Shown: in pieces, positions 29,381 to 40,443 of the stretch
Numbering within the stretch: position 1 is the first letter of the stretch
Layout: each line of letters begins with the position of its first letter
Sequence record: ON286974
DNA length: 64,000 nt
Strand: one strand, 5' to 3'
Origin: Escherichia phage W115
Position numbers and translations under genes: made by a program
Notes under the pieces: generated by a model
Told to the model about the DNA's origin: nothing
Databases searched by the model: none
Seen by the model: the letters and a program-made list of their open reading frames with translations, nothing else

Positions 29381-30550
29381 TTACCAATCAATCTTATCAG
29401 CCGGAATCAGTTTCTTATAATTCCGTAGATAGTAAGTTTTCATTGAATCCAGAATACGGTCATAATCAAGACCATCAAATGCAATCATCAGACACATGAA
29501 AATATATGCTTGTGCATCACCATGTTTACGTGATTCGATAGTCGCATTGGATGCATATGTCTTTCTGTCTTCTCCCGCGTGTGCGTTATAAAATTCTGTT
29601 GCTGTCGTGAAGGCATTGCGAAGAATAGACCTGAATGCCTCCTCGAATAGCTCGATTCGTTCCAGTGCTTCCGGTTCGCCTTCATATGCAGCACGCAAAT
29701 CATCGGTTTCGCTTTCTACGACATAGTAGATCAGATTATTAGGAAACATCGATGTGTTTTTAATGTTATGCACACCAATATACCATTCACTCTTCACTTT
29801 GAACATTTGACCGTCTTTAGTGCGTGCAACAATTCCTTCGATACCTTCTGCGGTCCGAACTTCATCAAGAATATTGCTAAAACGCGCTGAATCAACCTGT
29901 AACGCATTTACCAGATGAGGACGTAGGATTGCGTCAGCAAATAGCATTTGATGCGGTACGTACTCTCCTGTGACGTTATGGCGTACATTCAGAAGTGTTA
30001 GCGACGGTTCAGAATATTCTACAACAATTCGGTTGCTGGGTGCTGTATATTCAAAGTTGAAAGTATAATCAGACCCAATATCAGCAATCTTAGCGCGTAG
30101 ATCCGCATACTTCTCTGAATACAGAAGACCGTTTGCTCTCTCTGCCTGGCTTGAGTACAAGGCCGCTTTAGACTTCAACTGAACATAGCCGTTATCAATG
30201 TAGGTGCTTACTAGACTACCGTCCATTTTGTCCATGACCATTTCCACATCTTCCGGCTTAAAGCGAGCGCGATCATTCTCGCCTAAATTAAAAAACTTCT
30301 CCATAGGACGAGATGCAATGCGGACCGGACGACCTTTATCGTCAATTTCAAACATGATCCCGCGACACTCTAACGCATCTGGTTTATTCCACATTTCCGG
30401 TTTGCTCAAGTACAGATAACTAAAAATGCGCATACGGGTTTGCATCGCCGTAATTTCATCTTTGTAATAGAACGTATCAGATCCGTCACATAGTGCCATC
30501 AGATTTTTGAACAATGCTAAAACTTTTTTGTTGTTTTCTTTTGTTGACAT
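29381..30550 (-). CDS. rnlA: RNA ligase 1
   Basis: 389 aa; similarity to T4 Rnl1 (ALECRGIMFE, RPMEKFFNL, nucleotidyl-lysine motif KMDGSL). Confidence 0.85.
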   Translation of the reverse strand: MSTKENNKKVLALFKNLMALCDGSDTFYYKDEITAMQTRMRIFSYLYLSKPEMWNKPDALECRGIMFEIDDKGRPVRIASRPMEKFFNLGENDRARFKPEDVEMVMDKMDGSLVSTYIDNGYVQLKSKAALYSSQAERANGLLYSEKYADLRAKIADIGSDYTFNFEYTAPSNRIVVEYSEPSLTLLNVRHNVTGEYVPHQMLFADAILRPHLVNALQVDSARFSNILDEVRTAEGIEGIVARTKDGQMFKVKSEWYIGVHNIKNTSMFPNNLIYYVVESETDDLRAAYEGEPEALERIELFEEAFRSILRNAFTTATEFYNAHAGEDRKTYASNATIESRKHGDAQAYIFMCLMIAFDGLDYDRILDSMKTYYLRNYKKLIPADKIDW

Positions 30551-30947
30551 AATTTGTGTTCCATTCTGGTTTAAATTTGGTGATCAAAACAGGTTCTTCG
30601 ATATCGGCAGTGCTTATAATATCCTTACCCGTTGGATTCTCGATGTACAACTCAAAGCACTGTCGGTAATAGAATGTTACTGTCTTACCTTCCTCTAGCG
30701 CCTTATGAATATTCTTACTCTTGCGAGTATCCGCTGTTGGTGTTTGTCTGTTAATGCTAGTCCGGTAATAATTGATCCGCTTTCTGAGATTGACAGTCTG
30801 ACCAATGTATACCAGTTCATCATCAACAACAATAGCGTAAAGAACATTTAAACGGTTCTTCTGAGGCGGCAGAATCACATCACCATCTTTACACTCTAAA
30901 CATGAATATTTAACGAATCCATAGTTTTCTATTAGCTCATTAATCAT
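30486..30947 (-). CDS. denA: endonuclease II (GIY-YIG)
   Basis: 153 aa; VLYAIVVDDELVYIGQTVNLRKRINYYRT nearly identical in pattern to T4 EndoII GIY-YIG core. Confidence 0.8.
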   Translation of the reverse strand: MINELIENYGFVKYSCLECKDGDVILPPQKNRLNVLYAIVVDDELVYIGQTVNLRKRINYYRTSINRQTPTADTRKSKNIHKALEEGKTVTFYYRQCFELYIENPTGKDIISTADIEEPVLITKFKPEWNTNYVNKRKQQKSFSIVQKSDGTM

Positions 30948-32289: not shown

Positions 32290-32766
32290 TTAATCATGAC
32301 CGTGATTTGCAATATCCGCTCGCGTCTTATCTTTGTGATTTCCTACGTCAAAGACACGATAACCATTTTCACGCAAAACTTTAATCACTTCTGGGTTATC
32401 CTCAAAGACTCCGACAACTTCATCTTTATCAAAGGATTTAATTACCTCTAATTTTATGTGATAGTCTTTACGGGAATCGGTACGGCCTCTCATAAAGATT
32501 TTATCAAAACACACCCCGTTAGAAATTAACCAATCAATTGTTTCCATGTAAGCATGTGAACTTCGTCCGGTGAGGATGTAAATCAAATGCCCGTTGTCGG
32601 AAAGAGCATTAATAACACGAATTACATCGTAAATGGGGGAATCACCCCCACATGCCTTGTTATATTCGATCCATGACTCGACTTTATCAAGATTTTCAGT
32701 TGGCATCTTTGCTAGTCGATGCGTTGGATCTGTGATCGTAAAATCTAAATCGACAAAATATATCAT
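32290..32766 (-). CDS. HAD-family phosphatase (possible nucleotidase)
   Basis: 158 aa; motif I DLDFT, motif II TGR, C-terminal FEDN; start overlaps nrdB stop (ATGA). Confidence 0.5.
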   Translation of the reverse strand: MIYFVDLDFTITDPTHRLAKMPTENLDKVESWIEYNKACGGDSPIYDVIRVINALSDNGHLIYILTGRSSHAYMETIDWLISNGVCFDKIFMRGRTDSRKDYHIKLEVIKSFDKDEVVGVFEDNPEVIKVLRENGYRVFDVGNHKDKTRADIANHGHD

Positions 32767-33923
32767 AGATATTTCCCGAATCGGTTGTAGTCATCGTCTG
32801 TTAAATCGGTATTAACCTGAGATACCAGATACATAATCTCTACTTCCTGCGCTGCATTCTGTACTTCGTCAGAGTTCAACCATTTACGCATCCACGGTAA
32901 CGGATGACGACGAACACTAAACGGGCTTTTCAGTCCGGCAGCACGCATACGGGAATCTGCCAGGTATTCTACATAGGTTTTCAGAATTTCCGGTGACAGG
33001 TTAGGAATTGCCCCCATTGCGAATAGGTGGTCTACCCATTCTTTTTCTTGCTCGACAACATCCAGAAAGATTTTCGTTGCTTCGCCTTCAAGTTCTTCCG
33101 CAATCTGTTTCCACTCATCACCATCAACCCCCGTTTGCCATTGACGAATAATGTATTGTGTGCCTTTTAAGTGAAGTTGTTCATCACGCGCAATAAATTT
33201 CATGATCTTCGCGTTACCTTCCAGTAAACCACGTTCGGCAAAGCTGAAAGTACATGCAAAGGACACATAAAAACGAATTGCTTCCAGTGCATTGACGCAG
33301 TGTGCACACAGATAAATCGAAGCCATCAGATCTCGTTTTGTATCTTCAAAAAATCTTCTTGCATCATCTAATGCTGTCTGGTCGTCTCGTTCTTCCCAAT
33401 AACGGAGATCTTCTTTTGCATTCTCATACTTACGAATCCAATAAAGAACATCATCATAATATTTCCCGATAGATTCCGCTCGCTTCATGATAGCAGGGTT
33501 ATCGATGATCTGGTCGAACTCACTAGCCGGATCAATGAAACAGTTACGCATAATGTGTGTATAGCTTCGGCTATGAATTGTTTCGCTGAATGTCCATGTT
33601 TGCAACCATGTATCGAGAGTTGGATCAGATACAATTGGACCAAATGCTGCGGACGGTGCGCGACCTTGAATAGAATCAAGTAATGTCTGATACTTCAAGT
33701 TTTCTGTGAAGAAACGCTTTTCGACGTCACCCATATTAAGATATTGAATGCGGTCAGTTGCAAGCGAGATCTCTTCTGGACGCCAGAAAAATGACAATTG
33801 CTTTTCGATCAGTTCTTCAAATACTTGATGACGCTGAATATCATAGCGAGCGATACCCAACCCACTACCCAGAAACATTGGTTCGTTCATAATATCAACA
33901 TGTTCGCGGTTAAATACGCTCAT
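32763..33923 (-). CDS. nrdB: ribonucleotide reductase small subunit
   Basis: 386 aa; strong similarity to T4 NrdB (FFWRPEE, SETIHSRSYTHI, RDEQLHLKGTQYI); uninterrupted. Confidence 0.9.
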   Translation of the reverse strand: MSVFNREHVDIMNEPMFLGSGLGIARYDIQRHQVFEELIEKQLSFFWRPEEISLATDRIQYLNMGDVEKRFFTENLKYQTLLDSIQGRAPSAAFGPIVSDPTLDTWLQTWTFSETIHSRSYTHIMRNCFIDPASEFDQIIDNPAIMKRAESIGKYYDDVLYWIRKYENAKEDLRYWEERDDQTALDDARRFFEDTKRDLMASIYLCAHCVNALEAIRFYVSFACTFSFAERGLLEGNAKIMKFIARDEQLHLKGTQYIIRQWQTGVDGDEWKQIAEELEGEATKIFLDVVEQEKEWVDHLFAMGAIPNLSPEILKTYVEYLADSRMRAAGLKSPFSVRRHPLPWMRKWLNSDEVQNAAQEVEIMYLVSQVNTDLTDDDYNRFGKYL

Positions 33924-33938
33924 TAATTCACCTCACTA

Positions 33939-34106
33939 TCACTTTTTAACACAAAAGAACTTAGTATTTCTGTTTATTTCGCTATCCTGCTGCAATTCCT
34001 GCACAGCTTCAAAACAATTTTGATATGATGAAAACTCTACGCTGGTAACAGTTCCTTTATTATATACGCCTACGCTAACGGAAAGCAATAACCATAATGT
34101 AGCCAT
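33939..34106 (-). CDS. hypothetical small hydrophobic protein (55 aa), paralog 1
   Basis: Unlisted ORF MATLWLLLSVSVGVYNKG...; TAATG overlap with paralog 2. Confidence 0.4.
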   Translation of the reverse strand: MATLWLLLSVSVGVYNKGTVTSVEFSSYQNCFEAVQELQQDSEINRNTKFFCVKK

Positions 34107-34279
34107 TAGTTCACCTTTTGTTTTTCAACGCAATATAGATTCATAAAGCGTTTATTGTCTTCGCGGATAATCTCGCGAACTTTAACGCAATCCTGCTTTG
34201 TTGCAAACTCAATGCTTGACATATTTCCGTAATTATACATTGAATTGCTGATTGCAATCAATAACCATACAGTAGCCAT
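34106..34279 (-). CDS. hypothetical small hydrophobic protein (57 aa), paralog 2
   Basis: Unlisted ORF MATVWLLIAISNSMYNYG...; TAATG overlap with upstream gene. Confidence 0.4.
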   Translation of the reverse strand: MATVWLLIAISNSMYNYGNMSSIEFATKQDCVKVREIIREDNKRFMNLYCVEKQKVN

Positions 34280-34514: not shown

Positions 34515-36758
34515 TTACAGCTTGCAAGATGAGCACTCGCTAGCGTCTTCCGTACCATCAGCACCGTCGCGAACGTTCGCATAATACAGGGTTTTCAGAC
34601 CGTAATATTGAGCAAACAACATATCATCTAACACATCAGCAATATCGACTTTACCAGTCTTATAAGTGCTTGGATCGTATGATGTATTGGAACTAATCGC
34701 CTGATCCACAAACTTCTGCATGATCGCTGCCAGTGTCAGATAAGGCTTGTTACCTTTCTTGATCAGTGTCCAAAGCAGGTCAATAACATCAGCATTATTC
34801 TCTACGTTCGGAATAACCTGATTAAATTGCCCTTCTTTCGATCCTTTAACCGATACAATCCCGCGAGGCGGTTCAATACCATTTGTGCTGTTAGACACCT
34901 GAGAGGACGACTCACAAGGCATCAGAGCCGAAAGCGTACTATTACGAATGCCATATTTTTTCAGGTCTTCGCGCAGTTCTTCCCAATCCATCTCATACAC
35001 CGGATCAACCAGTTCATCTACTGTCTTTTTGTACCAGTCGATAGGCAGTTCACCGCGACCATAACGTGTTTCGTGCATCAGTTCGCAAGCACCCTTCTCT
35101 TTTGCTAGCTGCACACTAGCTTTAATCAGAGCATATTGCAAGCGTTCAAACGTTTTATGCGTAAACTCGCTAGCGTCTTCATATGTGAAGAAATTATCCG
35201 CGAGATACGATGCAAAGTTAGTCACCCCAACACCCAGAGAGCGACGTTTTTTGGCTGTCAGAGCTTGCTCTACAGGATAATCCTGATAATCTAACAGGTT
35301 GTCAAGTGCACGCACCATAACCATAGCAATGCGTTCTACTTCTTCCATGTTTTCGATATCGAAATTACCTAAAACATATGCTGCCAAAGTACATAGGCTG
35401 ATCTCTGAATCATCACGACCCATCGGTTTTGTTGGCAGAGCAATTTCACAACACAGGTTAGATTGTTTAATCGGTGCTACATTACGAATAAACGCCCCGT
35501 GATTGTTCATGTTGTCTGTGAACGTTGGGTAGATTCGACCAGTGTTAAAACGTTCAATTGCCACCGCTAAAAACAGGTCTTCGGCTTTAACACGAGTTTT
35601 ACGAACACTCGGATCTTTTTCCAGTTTTTCGTAAAGCTGACGGAAACCTTCCTCATCTCGGAAGTATAGATCCCACAACAAGCCACCTGCAACATCTGGA
35701 CTAAACAGAGTAATGTAATCCCGTTTAAGGAATCGCTCTACCATCAGGTTATTAATCTGTACGCCGTAATCAAGATGACGAATGCGGTTATCTTCTACCC
35801 CTTTGTTATTCTTTAACACAATCAGACTTTCAAACTCTAAATGCCACATTGGGTAATAGAGAGTCGCCGCCCCGCCACGAATACCGCCTTGTGAGCATGA
35901 CTTAACGGCAGTCTGAAAATGTTTCCAGAATGGGATAACGCCAGTATGACGAACTTCACCATGCCCGATCTTAGATCCTTCCGCGCGAATCATGCCAGCG
36001 TTGATACCGATACCAGCACGCTTGCTAATATACTTAATGATTGCATTTGCGGTTTCATTAATACCCTGCAATGAGTCATCACTTTCAATCACCACACACG
36101 AACTAAATTGGCGTGTTGGGGTACGCACACCTGCCATAATCGGAGTAGGCAGAGAGATTTGCTTATTCGCAACAGCATTATAAAAATCAATCACATGTTC
36201 AAGTCGATTTTCTGTCTCTTCTTGATGCAAGCACATACCGATCAGCATATACGCAAATTGCGGTGTTTCGATGATTTTCTTAGTGCTGCGATCCTGAACA
36301 AGATATTTCTCTTTTAACTGCATCGCACCAGCATAGGTCATTTTAAAATCAAGTTTATGGTCGATGAATTTCTCCAGATATTCCACTTCTTCACGGGAAT
36401 ATTTTTGCAGAATTTCGCGATCATATTTTCCGGTTTCAATATTACGCTCAATATGGCTGTAAAAATCAATCGGTTGGAATTGACCGTATACTGATTTACG
36501 AAGCGCGAACATTGCAAGGTTACTTGCTACATATTGATAATCGGGTGTTTCGACAGTAATGTTATCTGCTGCGACCTTAATCAATACTTTCTGGATATCA
36601 TTGGTAGACATACCTTCTGTCAGAAGTGGTTCAACCATATCAAACAATTCATATGGATCAACGTTATGACCTTCGGCTGCCGCTTCCAGAATTTTCATTA
36701 CTTTTTCTTTTTCAAACGGAACAGTCAGACCGGAAGACTTAACAACATTTTTAATCAT
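34515..36758 (-). CDS. nrdA: ribonucleotide reductase large subunit
   Basis: 747 aa; ATP-cone N-terminus, catalytic NLCCEIALPT, C-terminal Cys pair; similarity to T4 NrdA. Confidence 0.9.
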   Translation of the reverse strand: MIKNVVKSSGLTVPFEKEKVMKILEAAAEGHNVDPYELFDMVEPLLTEGMSTNDIQKVLIKVAADNITVETPDYQYVASNLAMFALRKSVYGQFQPIDFYSHIERNIETGKYDREILQKYSREEVEYLEKFIDHKLDFKMTYAGAMQLKEKYLVQDRSTKKIIETPQFAYMLIGMCLHQEETENRLEHVIDFYNAVANKQISLPTPIMAGVRTPTRQFSSCVVIESDDSLQGINETANAIIKYISKRAGIGINAGMIRAEGSKIGHGEVRHTGVIPFWKHFQTAVKSCSQGGIRGGAATLYYPMWHLEFESLIVLKNNKGVEDNRIRHLDYGVQINNLMVERFLKRDYITLFSPDVAGGLLWDLYFRDEEGFRQLYEKLEKDPSVRKTRVKAEDLFLAVAIERFNTGRIYPTFTDNMNNHGAFIRNVAPIKQSNLCCEIALPTKPMGRDDSEISLCTLAAYVLGNFDIENMEEVERIAMVMVRALDNLLDYQDYPVEQALTAKKRRSLGVGVTNFASYLADNFFTYEDASEFTHKTFERLQYALIKASVQLAKEKGACELMHETRYGRGELPIDWYKKTVDELVDPVYEMDWEELREDLKKYGIRNSTLSALMPCESSSQVSNSTNGIEPPRGIVSVKGSKEGQFNQVIPNVENNADVIDLLWTLIKKGNKPYLTLAAIMQKFVDQAISSNTSYDPSTYKTGKVDIADVLDDMLFAQYYGLKTLYYANVRDGADGTEDASECSSCKL

Positions 36759-36826: not shown

Positions 36827-38047
36827 TTATACTGCCATTTGAGCGGTGATGGCTGGATGGCTTTGATAGTTGTGAATTTTAAAGTCTTTCGGAGTTTTTG
36901 TCAATACCTCATCTAAAGATTTAAATTCCGGCAACTCAATTGTTGGTTTATCAAACGGAACACGGCTTAACTGTTCCATGACTTGATCAAAATGGTTTTT
37001 GTAAATGTGAGTATCTCCACCAGAGAAAATCAGTTCTCCTACCTCAAGATCACACATTTTCGCTATGATGTGAGTTAACAGCGCATAGCTGGCAACATTA
37101 AAGGGCAAGCCCAAAAAGCTGTCTACGCTTCGCTGAAACCACATACAAGACAGTTTACCTTCATTGACGTAGAATTGTACGAACGGATGACATACACCCA
37201 ATACAGCATTATGTGTTCCTTGTACGTTCCATGAGTCAATAATGATCCGGCGATCCGTTGGATTGTTTTTAATTTGTTCGATCACATTTTGTAACTGGTC
37301 TTCCCAAATCTTCGGGCGATAGACATATTCTTCATCGTCTTTAGTGCTTGATGTGTCTACGTCCATACTAACAAACATCGTGGTATCCGGTGCTATAATA
37401 TCCCCACCCAGATAATCACTATCAAGCAGATAACCGAAATAACCGTCATCTACCCATTCCTGGAATCCCCACAAGCAATATGCATCATTAACAAAATTAG
37501 ATTGAGTCTTCCAGTGGTCTGCTACCAGAATATAATCAAACTCTTCATAACGCATACCACGCCAGATAGCACATAAACGGTCTTCTGTTTCATTGGTTGG
37601 CGTAAAGTCTTCTACCCACGGGTGTTTAAATGTATGTGTATATTTGCTCTTAACGCGCTTAATTTTGATTTCACCGTGTGGATGAATCGGTTTGCGTCGC
37701 CATGCCATGCCATACATATTGCCGACATTATAACCATTGAATCGCAAAGGATTCTTTTCTTTCATATCAAGACAGTTGCCGCGCCAAATGTCGAAGGCTT
37801 CTTCGTCAAACTTACCGCGTGTAATTTCCTGTAAGCGACGGCGGTCAAGTGATCCCTCCATAAACCATAGCAACTCGCCAATTATAGAGGCTGTAGCCAT
37901 CTTTTTGGTGGTCAGTAATGGAAAACCCTTGCTTAAATCAATTCGCATCTCTGCGCCGAATTTAGAGAGCGTACCTACCCCCGTGCGGTCTTCACGAGGC
38001 CAGCCATTATCAAGAACATCACGCAACAGTTTCAAATATTCTTTCAT
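36827..38047 (-). CDS. td: thymidylate synthase with large internal insertion
   Basis: 406 aa; N-terminal DRTGVGT, active-site region LGVCHPFVQFY, C-terminal FSGGDTHIY; about 110 extra residues inserted relative to T4 Td. Confidence 0.8.
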   Translation of the reverse strand: MKEYLKLLRDVLDNGWPREDRTGVGTLSKFGAEMRIDLSKGFPLLTTKKMATASIIGELLWFMEGSLDRRRLQEITRGKFDEEAFDIWRGNCLDMKEKNPLRFNGYNVGNMYGMAWRRKPIHPHGEIKIKRVKSKYTHTFKHPWVEDFTPTNETEDRLCAIWRGMRYEEFDYILVADHWKTQSNFVNDAYCLWGFQEWVDDGYFGYLLDSDYLGGDIIAPDTTMFVSMDVDTSSTKDDEEYVYRPKIWEDQLQNVIEQIKNNPTDRRIIIDSWNVQGTHNAVLGVCHPFVQFYVNEGKLSCMWFQRSVDSFLGLPFNVASYALLTHIIAKMCDLEVGELIFSGGDTHIYKNHFDQVMEQLSRVPFDKPTIELPEFKSLDEVLTKTPKDFKIHNYQSHPAITAQMAV

Positions 38048-38288
38048 CCCACATCACCTTTTTCTTGTTGATTGCTTTCTTACGCAGTTTTGCTACTGTC
38101 TCGTCAATATCGATAAAGACAACGCCACGGTCGAATACAGTTGCAGGTCTTGAGATATCGCTATTTTCTTGCACAGGAAGCCATGATGCGCTCGCTTCAT
38201 CATAGAGATATTGTAAACCGTAATAATCTACGGCTACTGCGTAGTTTTCACTGGTAGCCGTCCATAATTGAATAATACCGACTTTCAT
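38019..38288 (-). CDS. hypothetical protein (89 aa)
   Basis: Start re-assigned to ATG 38288 (MKVGIIQLW...), TAATG overlap with upstream mini-ORF; overlaps td start. Confidence 0.4.
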   Translation of the reverse strand: MKVGIIQLWTATSENYAVAVDYYGLQYLYDEASASWLPVQENSDISRPATVFDRGVVFIDIDETVAKLRKKAINKKKVMWDERIFETVA

Positions 38289-38380
38289 TATTGTTCCCGT
38301 CCGCAATGTAAGCACCGACTACCAGCAAACATCAAAGATTCACCACAATGTTTGCACTCATAATCTGTCAGAATTTTCAT
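38288..38380 (-). CDS. zinc-ribbon mini-protein (30 aa)
   Basis: Unlisted ORF MKILTDYECKHCGESLMFAGSRCLHCGREQ; starts 1 nt after frd stop (TAACATG). Confidence 0.35.
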   Translation of the reverse strand: MKILTDYECKHCGESLMFAGSRCLHCGREQ

Positions 38381-39343: not shown

Positions 39344-40360
39344 TTACGCTGTCAACTCTTTTTCAAAAGTTTTTACGATATACATGATAGTGCTCAATTC
39401 AGACGGCGCGACTGTTTCTGTGTAGCCATCCGGCATATCTTCTTTTGAGATATAGGAAGTTTTACCTTTCATCGCTTCCTTGATCTTGTTCTCTAATTCT
39501 AAGATCTTTTGACCGTCTTGTAAAGTCAATTCATAAAAGATCTCGTGGTCGAATTTAGATTTCGCTGATTGGTTTCTCATTCGTTCTTGTGTTGTTAAAT
39601 TGGTTATTCCAAATTTGATTCCATAAAAACATGATTTTTTAATTAGTTTTTGAATGTATAGTGTTCCGTGTTTTAAAGTGTTGTATCCAAATCTAGCACA
39701 ACTTGAACATCTATTTCCTGATAGAAACCCGTTAATTGTTGGTGTAAATGTATGACCATTACAACATTGCAATTTTAATTTTGTTGTATTTCCTTTCCAT
39801 TCACCTATAAATCCATTGAATAGTATGTTTTCTTTATCAAAGATTGGTTTAATTCTAATAATATAGTCATCTTTGGGTATTGATTTTAATTCTTTCAGTT
39901 TTAACCGGTAGCATTCTTGGCAGCGTCTTCCATTTTTGAAATTGTTAATTGTTGGTGTAAATGTATGTCCATTACAACATTGTAGATTTAATTTTGTCGA
40001 TGACCTTTTCCATTCACCTATAAATCCATTGAATAGTATGTTTTCTTTATCAAAGATTGGAGTTAACTTATGTAGATGTTCATCTTCCGAAAAAGATTTC
40101 ATCCTTCCATTCTTTATGTCTGCACATTTATGACAGCGATTTCCAGCGTTGAAATTGTTAATTGTTATTGTAAATGTATGACCATTACAACATTGCAATT
40201 TTAATTTTGTTGTATTTCCTTTCCATTCACCTATAAATCCAATAAACTTTATATTTTCTTTAAAGAATGTTGGTTTTAATTCTTCGTAGTAATTCACTGG
40301 AGATTTTGAATTGTGAGCTTTTCTAACCCATTCAATCTCATGTGCTTGACGTACTAACAT
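39344..40360 (-). CDS. protein with three tandem Cys-rich repeats (putative Zn-binding), function unknown
   Basis: Three repeats of about 70 aa, FDKENILFNGFIGEWK...TKL.LQCCNGHTFT.TINNF..G.RC..C; start re-assigned to ATG 40360 after GGAGGATAA RBS. Confidence 0.55.
   Translation of the reverse strand: MLVRQAHEIEWVRKAHNSKSPVNYYEELKPTFFKENIKFIGFIGEWKGNTTKLKLQCCNGHTFTITINNFNAGNRCHKCADIKNGRMKSFSEDEHLHKLTPIFDKENILFNGFIGEWKRSSTKLNLQCCNGHTFTPTINNFKNGRRCQECYRLKLKELKSIPKDDYIIRIKPIFDKENILFNGFIGEWKGNTTKLKLQCCNGHTFTPTINGFLSGNRCSSCARFGYNTLKHGTLYIQKLIKKSCFYGIKFGITNLTTQERMRNQSAKSKFDHEIFYELTLQDGQKILELENKIKEAMKGKTSYISKEDMPDGYTETVAPSELSTIMYIVKTFEKELTA
39720..40280. repeat. three tandem DNA repeats of about 210-215 bp inside the Cys-rich repeat gene
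   Basis: Near-identical stretches around 39730-39850, 39945-40060 and 40155-40275. Confidence 0.6.
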
Positions 40361-40443
40361 AATTTTATCCTCCGTTGTTTCTATGGGTGCATTATACATT
40401 ACCACATCAGCATGTCAATACATTTTCATAAAATTTTAGGCAA

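Follow-up and report, generated by a model that had tools for sequence, protein, structure and literature searches.

The window analysed here is a stretch of 64,000 nucleotides (nt) of Escherichia phage W115 (sequence record ON286974), and its td gene encodes a thymidylate synthase (TS) of the ThyA type (Td) that is interrupted, in frame, by an additional domain of 132 amino acids (aa). This protein is probably a functional ThyA that carries an unspliced, in-frame and degenerate relic of a homing-endonuclease-like cassette. The evidence comes from the position of the insert, its homology to a family of free-standing phage proteins, the occurrence of longer versions in the same loop of other phage synthases and the form of the copy found here. 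The td gene and the parts of its product are as follows.

36827..38047, minus strand: td coding sequence, an uninterrupted open reading frame (ORF) of 406 codons plus stop (stop at 36827-36829)
37697..38047, minus strand: N-terminal thymidylate synthase segment, aa 1-117, corresponding to Escherichia coli ThyA 1-82 and onward and ending at the invariant Y112..W116-R117
37301..37696, minus strand: in-frame insert, aa 118-249, 132 aa, a single contiguous block replacing the 10-33-aa surface loop of canonical enzymes
37358..37663, minus strand: core of the insert, Td aa 129-230, homologous to the free-standing family labelled 'HNH endonuclease'; predicted helical bundle plus beta hairpin
37301..37357, minus strand: C-terminal connector of the insert, aa 231-249 (...EEYVYRPKIWE), a returning strand conserved in the aligned insert-bearing synthases
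36830..37300, minus strand: C-terminal thymidylate synthase segment, aa 250-406, aligned with E. coli ThyA 110-264 (165 bits); catalytic Cys286 at nt 37190-37192

A preliminary description of this DNA had proposed a single in-frame insert of some 110 residues between the MYGMAWRR and NNPTDRR segments, and this was essentially right. In an alignment of 21 sequences (the window Td, 17 insert-bearing and three canonical synthases) the surplus residues are not spread along the protein but lie in one block of 132 aa, between the invariant W116-R117 and the invariant D250-Q251. The block is 127-140 aa long in five relatives (54-98% identical overall) and 163-284 aa in eleven others, against 10, 11 and 28 aa in the three canonical enzymes. 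It takes the place of loop 100-109 of E. coli ThyA, between the YGxxWR helix and the DQ(L/I) helix, which is presumably also the loop that holds the first insert of eukaryotic TS. A connector motif at its end (YVYRPKIW, HVVRPIIW or FVWRQRVY) is kept in short and long inserts alike and is reduced in one synthase (P0006).

Structure prediction also bore out the suggestion that the insert might be a separate domain. With the 21-sequence alignment as input, AlphaFold2 gave a model of full-length Td with a mean predicted local distance difference test score (pLDDT) of 91 and a predicted template-modelling score (pTM) of 0.90, in which the insert is confidently folded (pLDDT 84-97 over 10-residue blocks); the insert modelled on its own scored a pLDDT of 86.9 and a pTM of 0.81. 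Three helices (153-171, 177-189 and 195-201) and a hairpin (strands 206-209 and 224-227) are predicted, with two short strands leaving the enzyme and two returning to it (E241-245 and E248-250). A structure comparison of the Td model found no solved TS structure with a counterpart of the insert. The guanine-plus-cytosine (GC) content of the insert resembles that of its flanks, so that it is no recent compositional foreigner.

Around this insert the enzyme is complete. The 406-aa product (286 aa in T4, PDB accession no. 1tis, as the preliminary description had it) matches Pfam PF00303 in two stretches (E 1.3e-84, 283.9 bits against a cutoff of 24.3) and NCBIfam TIGR03284 (284 bits against a cutoff of 108). 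E. coli ThyA aligns with Td aa 1-82 and aa 250-406, with Td D250 corresponding to E. coli D110. The catalytic set of TS comprises the Cys-His pair, the phosphate-binding arginines (R21, R126', R127' and R166 in E. coli), Asn177 for specificity towards deoxyuridine monophosphate, and E58, D169, H207 and Y209. Catalytic and ligand positions are invariant or nearly so across the alignment (R21, E58, R266-R267, C286-H287, R306-S307, D309, N317, H347 and Y349), and the catalytic Cys region and the C-terminus are intact, as had been claimed. In Foldseek comparisons with E. coli ThyA the template-modelling score of the Td model was 0.91-0.94 when normalised to the target and about 0.60 when normalised to the query, which indicates that the TS fold is complete and the insert additional to it. 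On these sequence and model features, we infer that Td is a working ThyA-type enzyme.

The gene is 96-98% identical at the nucleotide level to td of RB49, Phi1 and other Krischvirus phages, and such identities place the window in Krischvirus, as that of an RB49-like coliphage. Full-length td occurs in 58 phage records (Krischvirus and relatives; 90-98% nucleotide identity), and the insert is present in all 58. Because 58 independent genomes share it, the long td is a stable Krischvirus feature and no sequencing artefact. A Shine-Dalgarno-like stretch (AAGGTGAT) lies upstream of the td start. The gene begins within the 98-aa ORF that precedes it (38019..38315, no Pfam match), its start codon being 29 nt inside that ORF; the overlap is likewise annotated in RB49, Phi1 and others and suggests translational coupling.

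The relationship of the insert to other proteins emerged from profile comparison. Word-indexed homologue searches returned nothing with the insert alone and eight synthases with the insert alignment, and it was an exhaustive profile search that reached a free-standing family. In hhalign, the profile of seven short inserts matched that of 82 free-standing proteins over insert residues 12-113 (probability 98.5%, E 2.6e-15). The insert alone (131 aa) matches PHROG 2081, 'HNH endonuclease', faintly (E 0.065), and long inserts match it at E 1e-16 to 1.7e-33 over profile positions ~14-216 of 433; further matches of the long inserts are to PHROGs 953, 374, 8790 and 3377, each of which bears an HNH or restriction endonuclease label. 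The exhaustive HMMER search with the insert profile retrieved 9,997 cluster representatives at E<=1e-3, 3,086 of them at E<=1e-10. Among the top 148 matches, 66 are thymidylate synthases in which TS sequence stands on both sides (or on one side, if the protein is incomplete) of a 170-380-aa module, and 82 are non-synthases, many of them proteins of 170-300 aa with little besides the module.

A tblastn search with a long insert found td of Krischvirus (E 1e-11) and, in all, 1,440 phage records, the matches being annotated as HNH endonuclease, DNA-binding protein or hypothetical. A homing-gene-like context was seen for two of the free-standing genes inspected: a 174-aa ORF of Vibrio phage D391 (VPHD391_0038), flanked by the genes for DNA primase and DNA polymerase, and a 218-aa ORF (ESCO9_00008) between the genes for ribonucleotide reductase alpha and beta in Escherichia phage ESCO9. 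Both are usual seats of free-standing homing endonuclease genes. The members of the family (PHROGs 2081, 953 and 374) share about 100 residues with the Td insert, including a helical W..M / V..RW..F.NF..D core and an L-D-x-D ... T-x-F hairpin. They differ from it in that the Td copy is embedded in an enzyme, is acidic, lacks the N-terminal beta module and the part after the hairpin, and has lost most of the invariant polar residues.

Longer versions of the same insert are found in the same loop of jumbo-phage and many metagenomic thymidylate synthases, where a full-length, basic insert of 245-285 aa is present. These synthases (Klebsiella phages phiKp_21 and KP13-7, Escherichia phages UE-S1 and ph0011, and dozens of metagenomic clusters) share with Td the insertion site, the connector strands, the homologous central module and the flanks NPxRFNGYNxGNMY and NAVLG(V/I)CHP. 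Unlike Td, they keep the D-K-D, YS..TC and N motifs, and some carry a NUMOD-like helix-turn-helix; they look intact, and next to them the Td copy appears to be a deletion derivative. Several further module-bearing metagenomic proteins (P0144, P0146, P0228, P0251, P0253, P0255, P0260, P0270 and P0216) are 565-676 aa long and match only a short part of the C-terminal TS half of Td; the same cassette may here be carried by more distant TS-like enzymes, such as pyrimidine hydroxymethylases.

Presence and absence of the cassette at this one fixed site vary among the long-insert forms, and not within Krischvirus, where 58 of 58 carry it. Synthases with the insert are interleaved with others that lack it, and the full-length copies occur in enzyme lineages that otherwise have none. 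The synthase P0017 has a 284-aa insert, yet its TS core is 86% identical to that of P0105, which has no insert (33-aa loop), and 64% identical to that of the nearest insert-bearing enzyme. In its flanks it has the canonical GDLGRVYG / MALPPCH sequences and not the NGYNxGNMY / NAVLGxCHP of the window clade; its insert is closest to other TS inserts and has the same connector strands. Similarly, the long insert is present in jumbo phages KP13-7/phiKp_21, UE-S1 and ph0011 and absent from two other jumbo phages, Muenster (347 kb) and CMSTMSU (386 kb), at a synthase core identity of 61-65%. These cases suggest that the embedded cassette comes and goes, as a site-specific mobile element would.

The Krischvirus copy is a reduced and altered form of this module. 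Compared with the long inserts it is about 110 residues shorter, lacking about 60 residues of the N-terminal beta-rich module and everything beyond the hairpin, including a segment that in some long inserts resembles a NUMOD-type helix-turn-helix. Ten polar residues are at least 90% conserved in the free-standing family; the window insert keeps four of them (the family's D320, D340, D342 and T359) and has lost the other six (D249, R285, K341, S356, C360 and N368). Its charge has also been reversed, with a net charge of -10 (-12 in the central module) and an isoelectric point of 4.85. Isoelectric points are 4.8-6.8 among short inserts and 8.3-9.4 among long TS inserts, and small free-standing members have a median of 9.2 with a net charge of +9. 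The acidic charge of the window insert argues against DNA binding.

Despite these losses, the insert is not drifting freely. Across seven Krischvirus genes, with only 5-12 substitutions per class, its ratio of nonsynonymous to synonymous substitution rates (dN/dS) was 0.08-0.46 and typically about 0.2, which indicates that it is under purifying selection; that of the TS core was 0.01-0.04 in comparisons unaffected by the recombinant patch described below. Identity between inserts is 36-55% among enzymes that are 54-62% identical overall. Within the short inserts of these enzymes DAYCLWG.QE.VD, APDT and F108 are invariant.

Two kinds of variation were seen among the td genes of Krischvirus. A four-codon in-frame indel at ~37532..37537 (td codons 171-172), in the linker directly after the first long helix of the insert, is polymorphic: an extra SEYN(L/Q)F segment is present in RB49, KFS-EC, Makalu003 and UPWr_E1 and absent from the window, Phi1 and ELT3. 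The gene product is 410-411 aa long with this segment and 406-408 aa without it. Separately, td of ELT3 and KFS-EC contains a diverged patch (36983..37288, codons ~254-355) that begins about five codons after the end of the insert and takes in the catalytic Cys region. Per 60 nt it shows 13-30 differences from the window, against 0-4 in the rest of the gene including the insert, apart from the four-codon indel of KFS-EC. This is a sharply bounded recombination patch from a diverged td allele.

Taken in sequence, the favoured history would be as follows. A surface loop of ThyA would have been replaced by a domain, now of 132 residues, that is co-translated with the enzyme and retained in the mature protein. 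This domain would descend from an in-frame cassette that was related to the small, basic, free-standing phage proteins and that we infer to have been a homing element. Krischvirus phages would then have lost its N-terminal beta module together with its C-terminal part, most of the invariant polar residues would have been replaced and the charge turned acidic, so that the domain most likely no longer binds or cuts DNA and would have no DNA-directed function at present. It may have stayed on as a compact folded appendage, since it could not easily be removed cleanly and an essential enzyme would suffer if it misfolded.

Several observations weigh against this account. The module has no sequence match in Pfam, NCBIfam or PDB, whether the insert, the long inserts or the free-standing relatives are used as query, and no HNH family of Pfam or NCBIfam is matched by any of the three. 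Demonstrated nuclease activity was not found for any member of the family, free-standing or embedded. The 'HNH' label derives from PHROG and GenBank annotation, and in an alignment made by eye a conserved Lys, not His, stands at the presumed catalytic His (the hairpin reads L-D-K-D in the family and L-D-S-D in the window insert); 'endonuclease' is therefore an annotation label for this family. Insert and core identities mostly track each other, so that the history looks mostly vertical and the case for mobility is made by a few pairs and contrasts. Finally, a dN/dS of about 0.2 and the invariant short-insert motifs DAYCLWG.QE.VD and APDT could equally reflect an acquired function of the remnant.

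This last point leads to the most serious alternative, namely that the truncated acidic module has been exapted and is kept for a useful role, such as docking to partners in the T4-type complex for deoxyribonucleoside triphosphate synthesis or in the replisome, or regulation of the enzyme. Such a role is possible, if somewhat unlikely. The purifying selection on the insert and the invariance of its three blocks across enzymes of 54-62% overall identity are consistent with it, as are the compact and confident fold, in which the pTM of the whole protein suggests a fixed orientation in the model, and the charge of the short-insert enzymes, which has become acidic or neutral in all of them. In T4 Td, additional surface segments have reportedly been proposed to mediate complex formation. 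However, selection for the folding of an embedded domain would give the same signals without any separate function, and the present data fit both structural constraint and a new function of the remnant and cannot separate them. The rate of evolution of the insert is about ten times that of the core and the four-codon indel is tolerated in it, T4 and most relatives manage without it, and no partner or motif was identified.

It is very unlikely that the insert is a still-active element, retaining sequence-specific DNA binding or cleavage and homing into td alleles that lack it. Its homology to a family with homing-gene-like genomic behaviour would fit, and the ELT3/KFS-EC patch just downstream of the insert can be read as a conversion tract. 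Against this stand the net charge of -10 compared with +9 in the family, the deletion of both the N-terminal module and the C-terminal helix and NUMOD-like part, and the loss of six of the ten family-invariant polar residues; moreover, with the insert in all 58 matching records, the lineage offers no remaining target.

An explanation by self-splicing (intein or group I intron) or by misassembly, with a mature protein of normal length, is effectively excluded on sequence grounds: the size and position within a conserved enzyme are intein-like and td of T4 has an intron, but the junctions carry no nucleophile or His-Asn, the insert has no Hint or intein match, the reading frame is uninterrupted and its dN/dS is below 1, Rfam reports no intron and the same insert recurs in 58 independent genomes. 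In Pfam searches no Hint or intein family was found for the insert at E<=10 or for long inserts at E<=1, and the junctions WR|RKP... (R117|R118) and ...IWE|DQL (E249|D250) have no conserved Cys, Ser or Thr nucleophile and no His-Asn, so that an intein was rejected, in line with the earlier remark that intein motifs are lacking. A group I intron in td was likewise rejected, since Rfam at gathering thresholds gave 0 matches across the window, the frame is open and dN/dS of the insert is below 1. A frameshift or sequencing error, which the preliminary description had considered as a source of an apparent fusion, was rejected because the same sequence occurs in all of these genomes.

The same description had reported td and nrdB as intron-free, and both are uninterrupted ORFs, as is nrdA, which lies between them:

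34515..36758, minus strand: nrdA, uninterrupted 747-aa ORF
32763..33923, minus strand: nrdB, uninterrupted 386-aa ORF

The td gene of T4 carries an intron, and intron-free td and nrdB are normal outside T4 and its closest relatives. The facts of the earlier reading thus stood, and what did not stand was the treatment of the absent introns as notable, this being simply the Krischvirus state. Its interpretation was correct yet incomplete, as the origin of the insert, which it had left open, is the informative part.

Other types of insert were also considered. The Lactobacillus casei TS has a 50-residue insert in its small domain, and eukaryotic enzymes have insertions of their own. Td resembles these in keeping an intact fold and catalytic set and in having its extra residues in the variable small-domain region, which tolerates them. 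It differs from them in that theirs are extensions of 12-50 residues and that of Td is an autonomous folded domain of 132 aa, homologous to an unrelated phage family. Equivalence to the L. casei insert was rejected, since that insert lies at another site, upstream of the YGxQWR motif; by the numbering assumed here, L. casei Y146 corresponds to E. coli Y94 and the insert precedes the motif, and the resulting offset of 52 agrees with the alignments made in this work. Weak Cas3-like_C and F-box matches were dismissed as noise. A structural zinc site in the module was dropped, as the candidate Cys and His columns fall outside the columns with 90% or more conservation among the free-standing proteins.

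The closest published precedent found is the ShiLan domain: a DNA methylase of a mycobacteriophage contains a homing insertion that is not spliced out, and this insertion was proposed to be a tolerated protrusion and to spread in a homing-like manner (PMC11855218). Like the Td insert, it is read through in frame in a phage enzyme and has no intein or intron features (PMC11855218). In ShiLan, however, the HNH endonuclease is encoded out of frame within the insertion (PMC11855218), whereas in Td the endonuclease-like module itself is in frame, and the host gene and the endonuclease family differ. A hidden out-of-frame ORF of the ShiLan type was rejected for the window, as the insert is overlapped only by a 41-aa ORF (same strand, other frame) and a 70-aa ORF (opposite strand). 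In the thyA insert of KP13-7 a single other ORF was seen, of 78 aa and antisense, so that short antisense ORFs are the only alternative-frame ones of 50 aa or more.

Inteins and mini-inteins resemble the TS cassette in being in-frame selfish insertions at a conserved site of an enzyme of nucleotide metabolism, with full and shortened forms across lineages. They differ from the Td insert in that only inteins have a Hint domain and junction nucleophiles, and the Td insert is expected to remain unspliced. A survey of actinobacteriophage inteins was set aside as not pertinent, since it covers ThyX inteins.

The gene order around td is of the T4 type (gene 32, a variable ORF, frd, td, nrdA, small ORFs, nrdB), and the part from frd to nrdB is identical in RB49. 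Between gene 32 and frd, on the minus strand (39344..40405), lies a 353-aa ORF with three zinc-ribbon repeats of CapR homology (Pfam PF21817, E 1.1e-22). These are encoded by a 213-bp tandem DNA repeat (39731..40262, 2.5 copies, 80% match), and the GC content of the region is 0.27-0.31 compared with about 0.42 around it. In RB49 the same slot holds a different 485-aa 'endonuclease' with CapR and DUF723 domains, and the slot looks like a variable seat of homing-gene-like ORFs.

Two further loci were noted on the minus strand. A 153-aa ORF (30486..30947), which shares 65 nt with the beginning of the next ORF downstream (29381..30550, 389 aa), has a borderline match to the GIY-YIG catalytic domain (Pfam PF01541, E 1.5e-4, 22.5 bits against a cutoff of 22.6) and probably represents a free-standing endonuclease gene of the seg kind. 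Between nrdA and nrdB, two similar ORFs of 55 and 57 aa (33939..34106 and 34106..34279; MATLWLLLSVSVGVYNKG... and MATVWLLIAISNSMYNYG...) appear from their sequences to be tandem paralogues with a hydrophobic N-terminus. Three such hypothetical genes are annotated in this gap in RB49.

The literature searched (RB49 or Krischvirus with TS; TS with HNH or domain insertion) yielded no description of the RB49-like td insert or of embedded TS cassettes. The td gene itself has been public since the RB49 genome, and the apparent novelty seems to lie in the recognition of its extra domain as a decayed member of a large, uncharacterised, homing-gene-like family found in the same ThyA loop. That family comprises thousands of clusters and occurs in 1,440 phage genomes, is missing from Pfam and PDB, and bears the label 'HNH endonuclease' without a recognisable HNH motif. 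The data also suggest that the embedded cassette is widespread in phage ThyA genes. As for the enzyme, the ThyA loop after the WR motif tolerates folded insertions of 130-285 residues, which is useful to enzyme engineering.

A broader proposal can be put forward only tentatively and is rather doubtful: phage thymidylate synthases may host an undescribed class of selfish element that is homing-endonuclease-like, neither intron-encoded nor intein-embedded, and carried as a permanent in-frame domain. The long, basic forms may pair two nuclease or DNA-binding modules through the obligate TS dimer, and the Krischvirus insert would be a 'mini' end stage, possibly co-opted. Homing endonuclease genes in essential genes are thought to survive only inside self-splicing introns or inteins, or else between genes. 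If the proposal is true, a cassette translated into a permissive loop of an essential enzyme would be a fourth survival strategy. The window copy, as a relic, is of moderate interest, and the class would be of more interest if the long forms prove active. The natural series from free-standing protein through intact embedded domain to decayed embedded domain could then be used to study the conversion of selfish modules into fixed protein domains.

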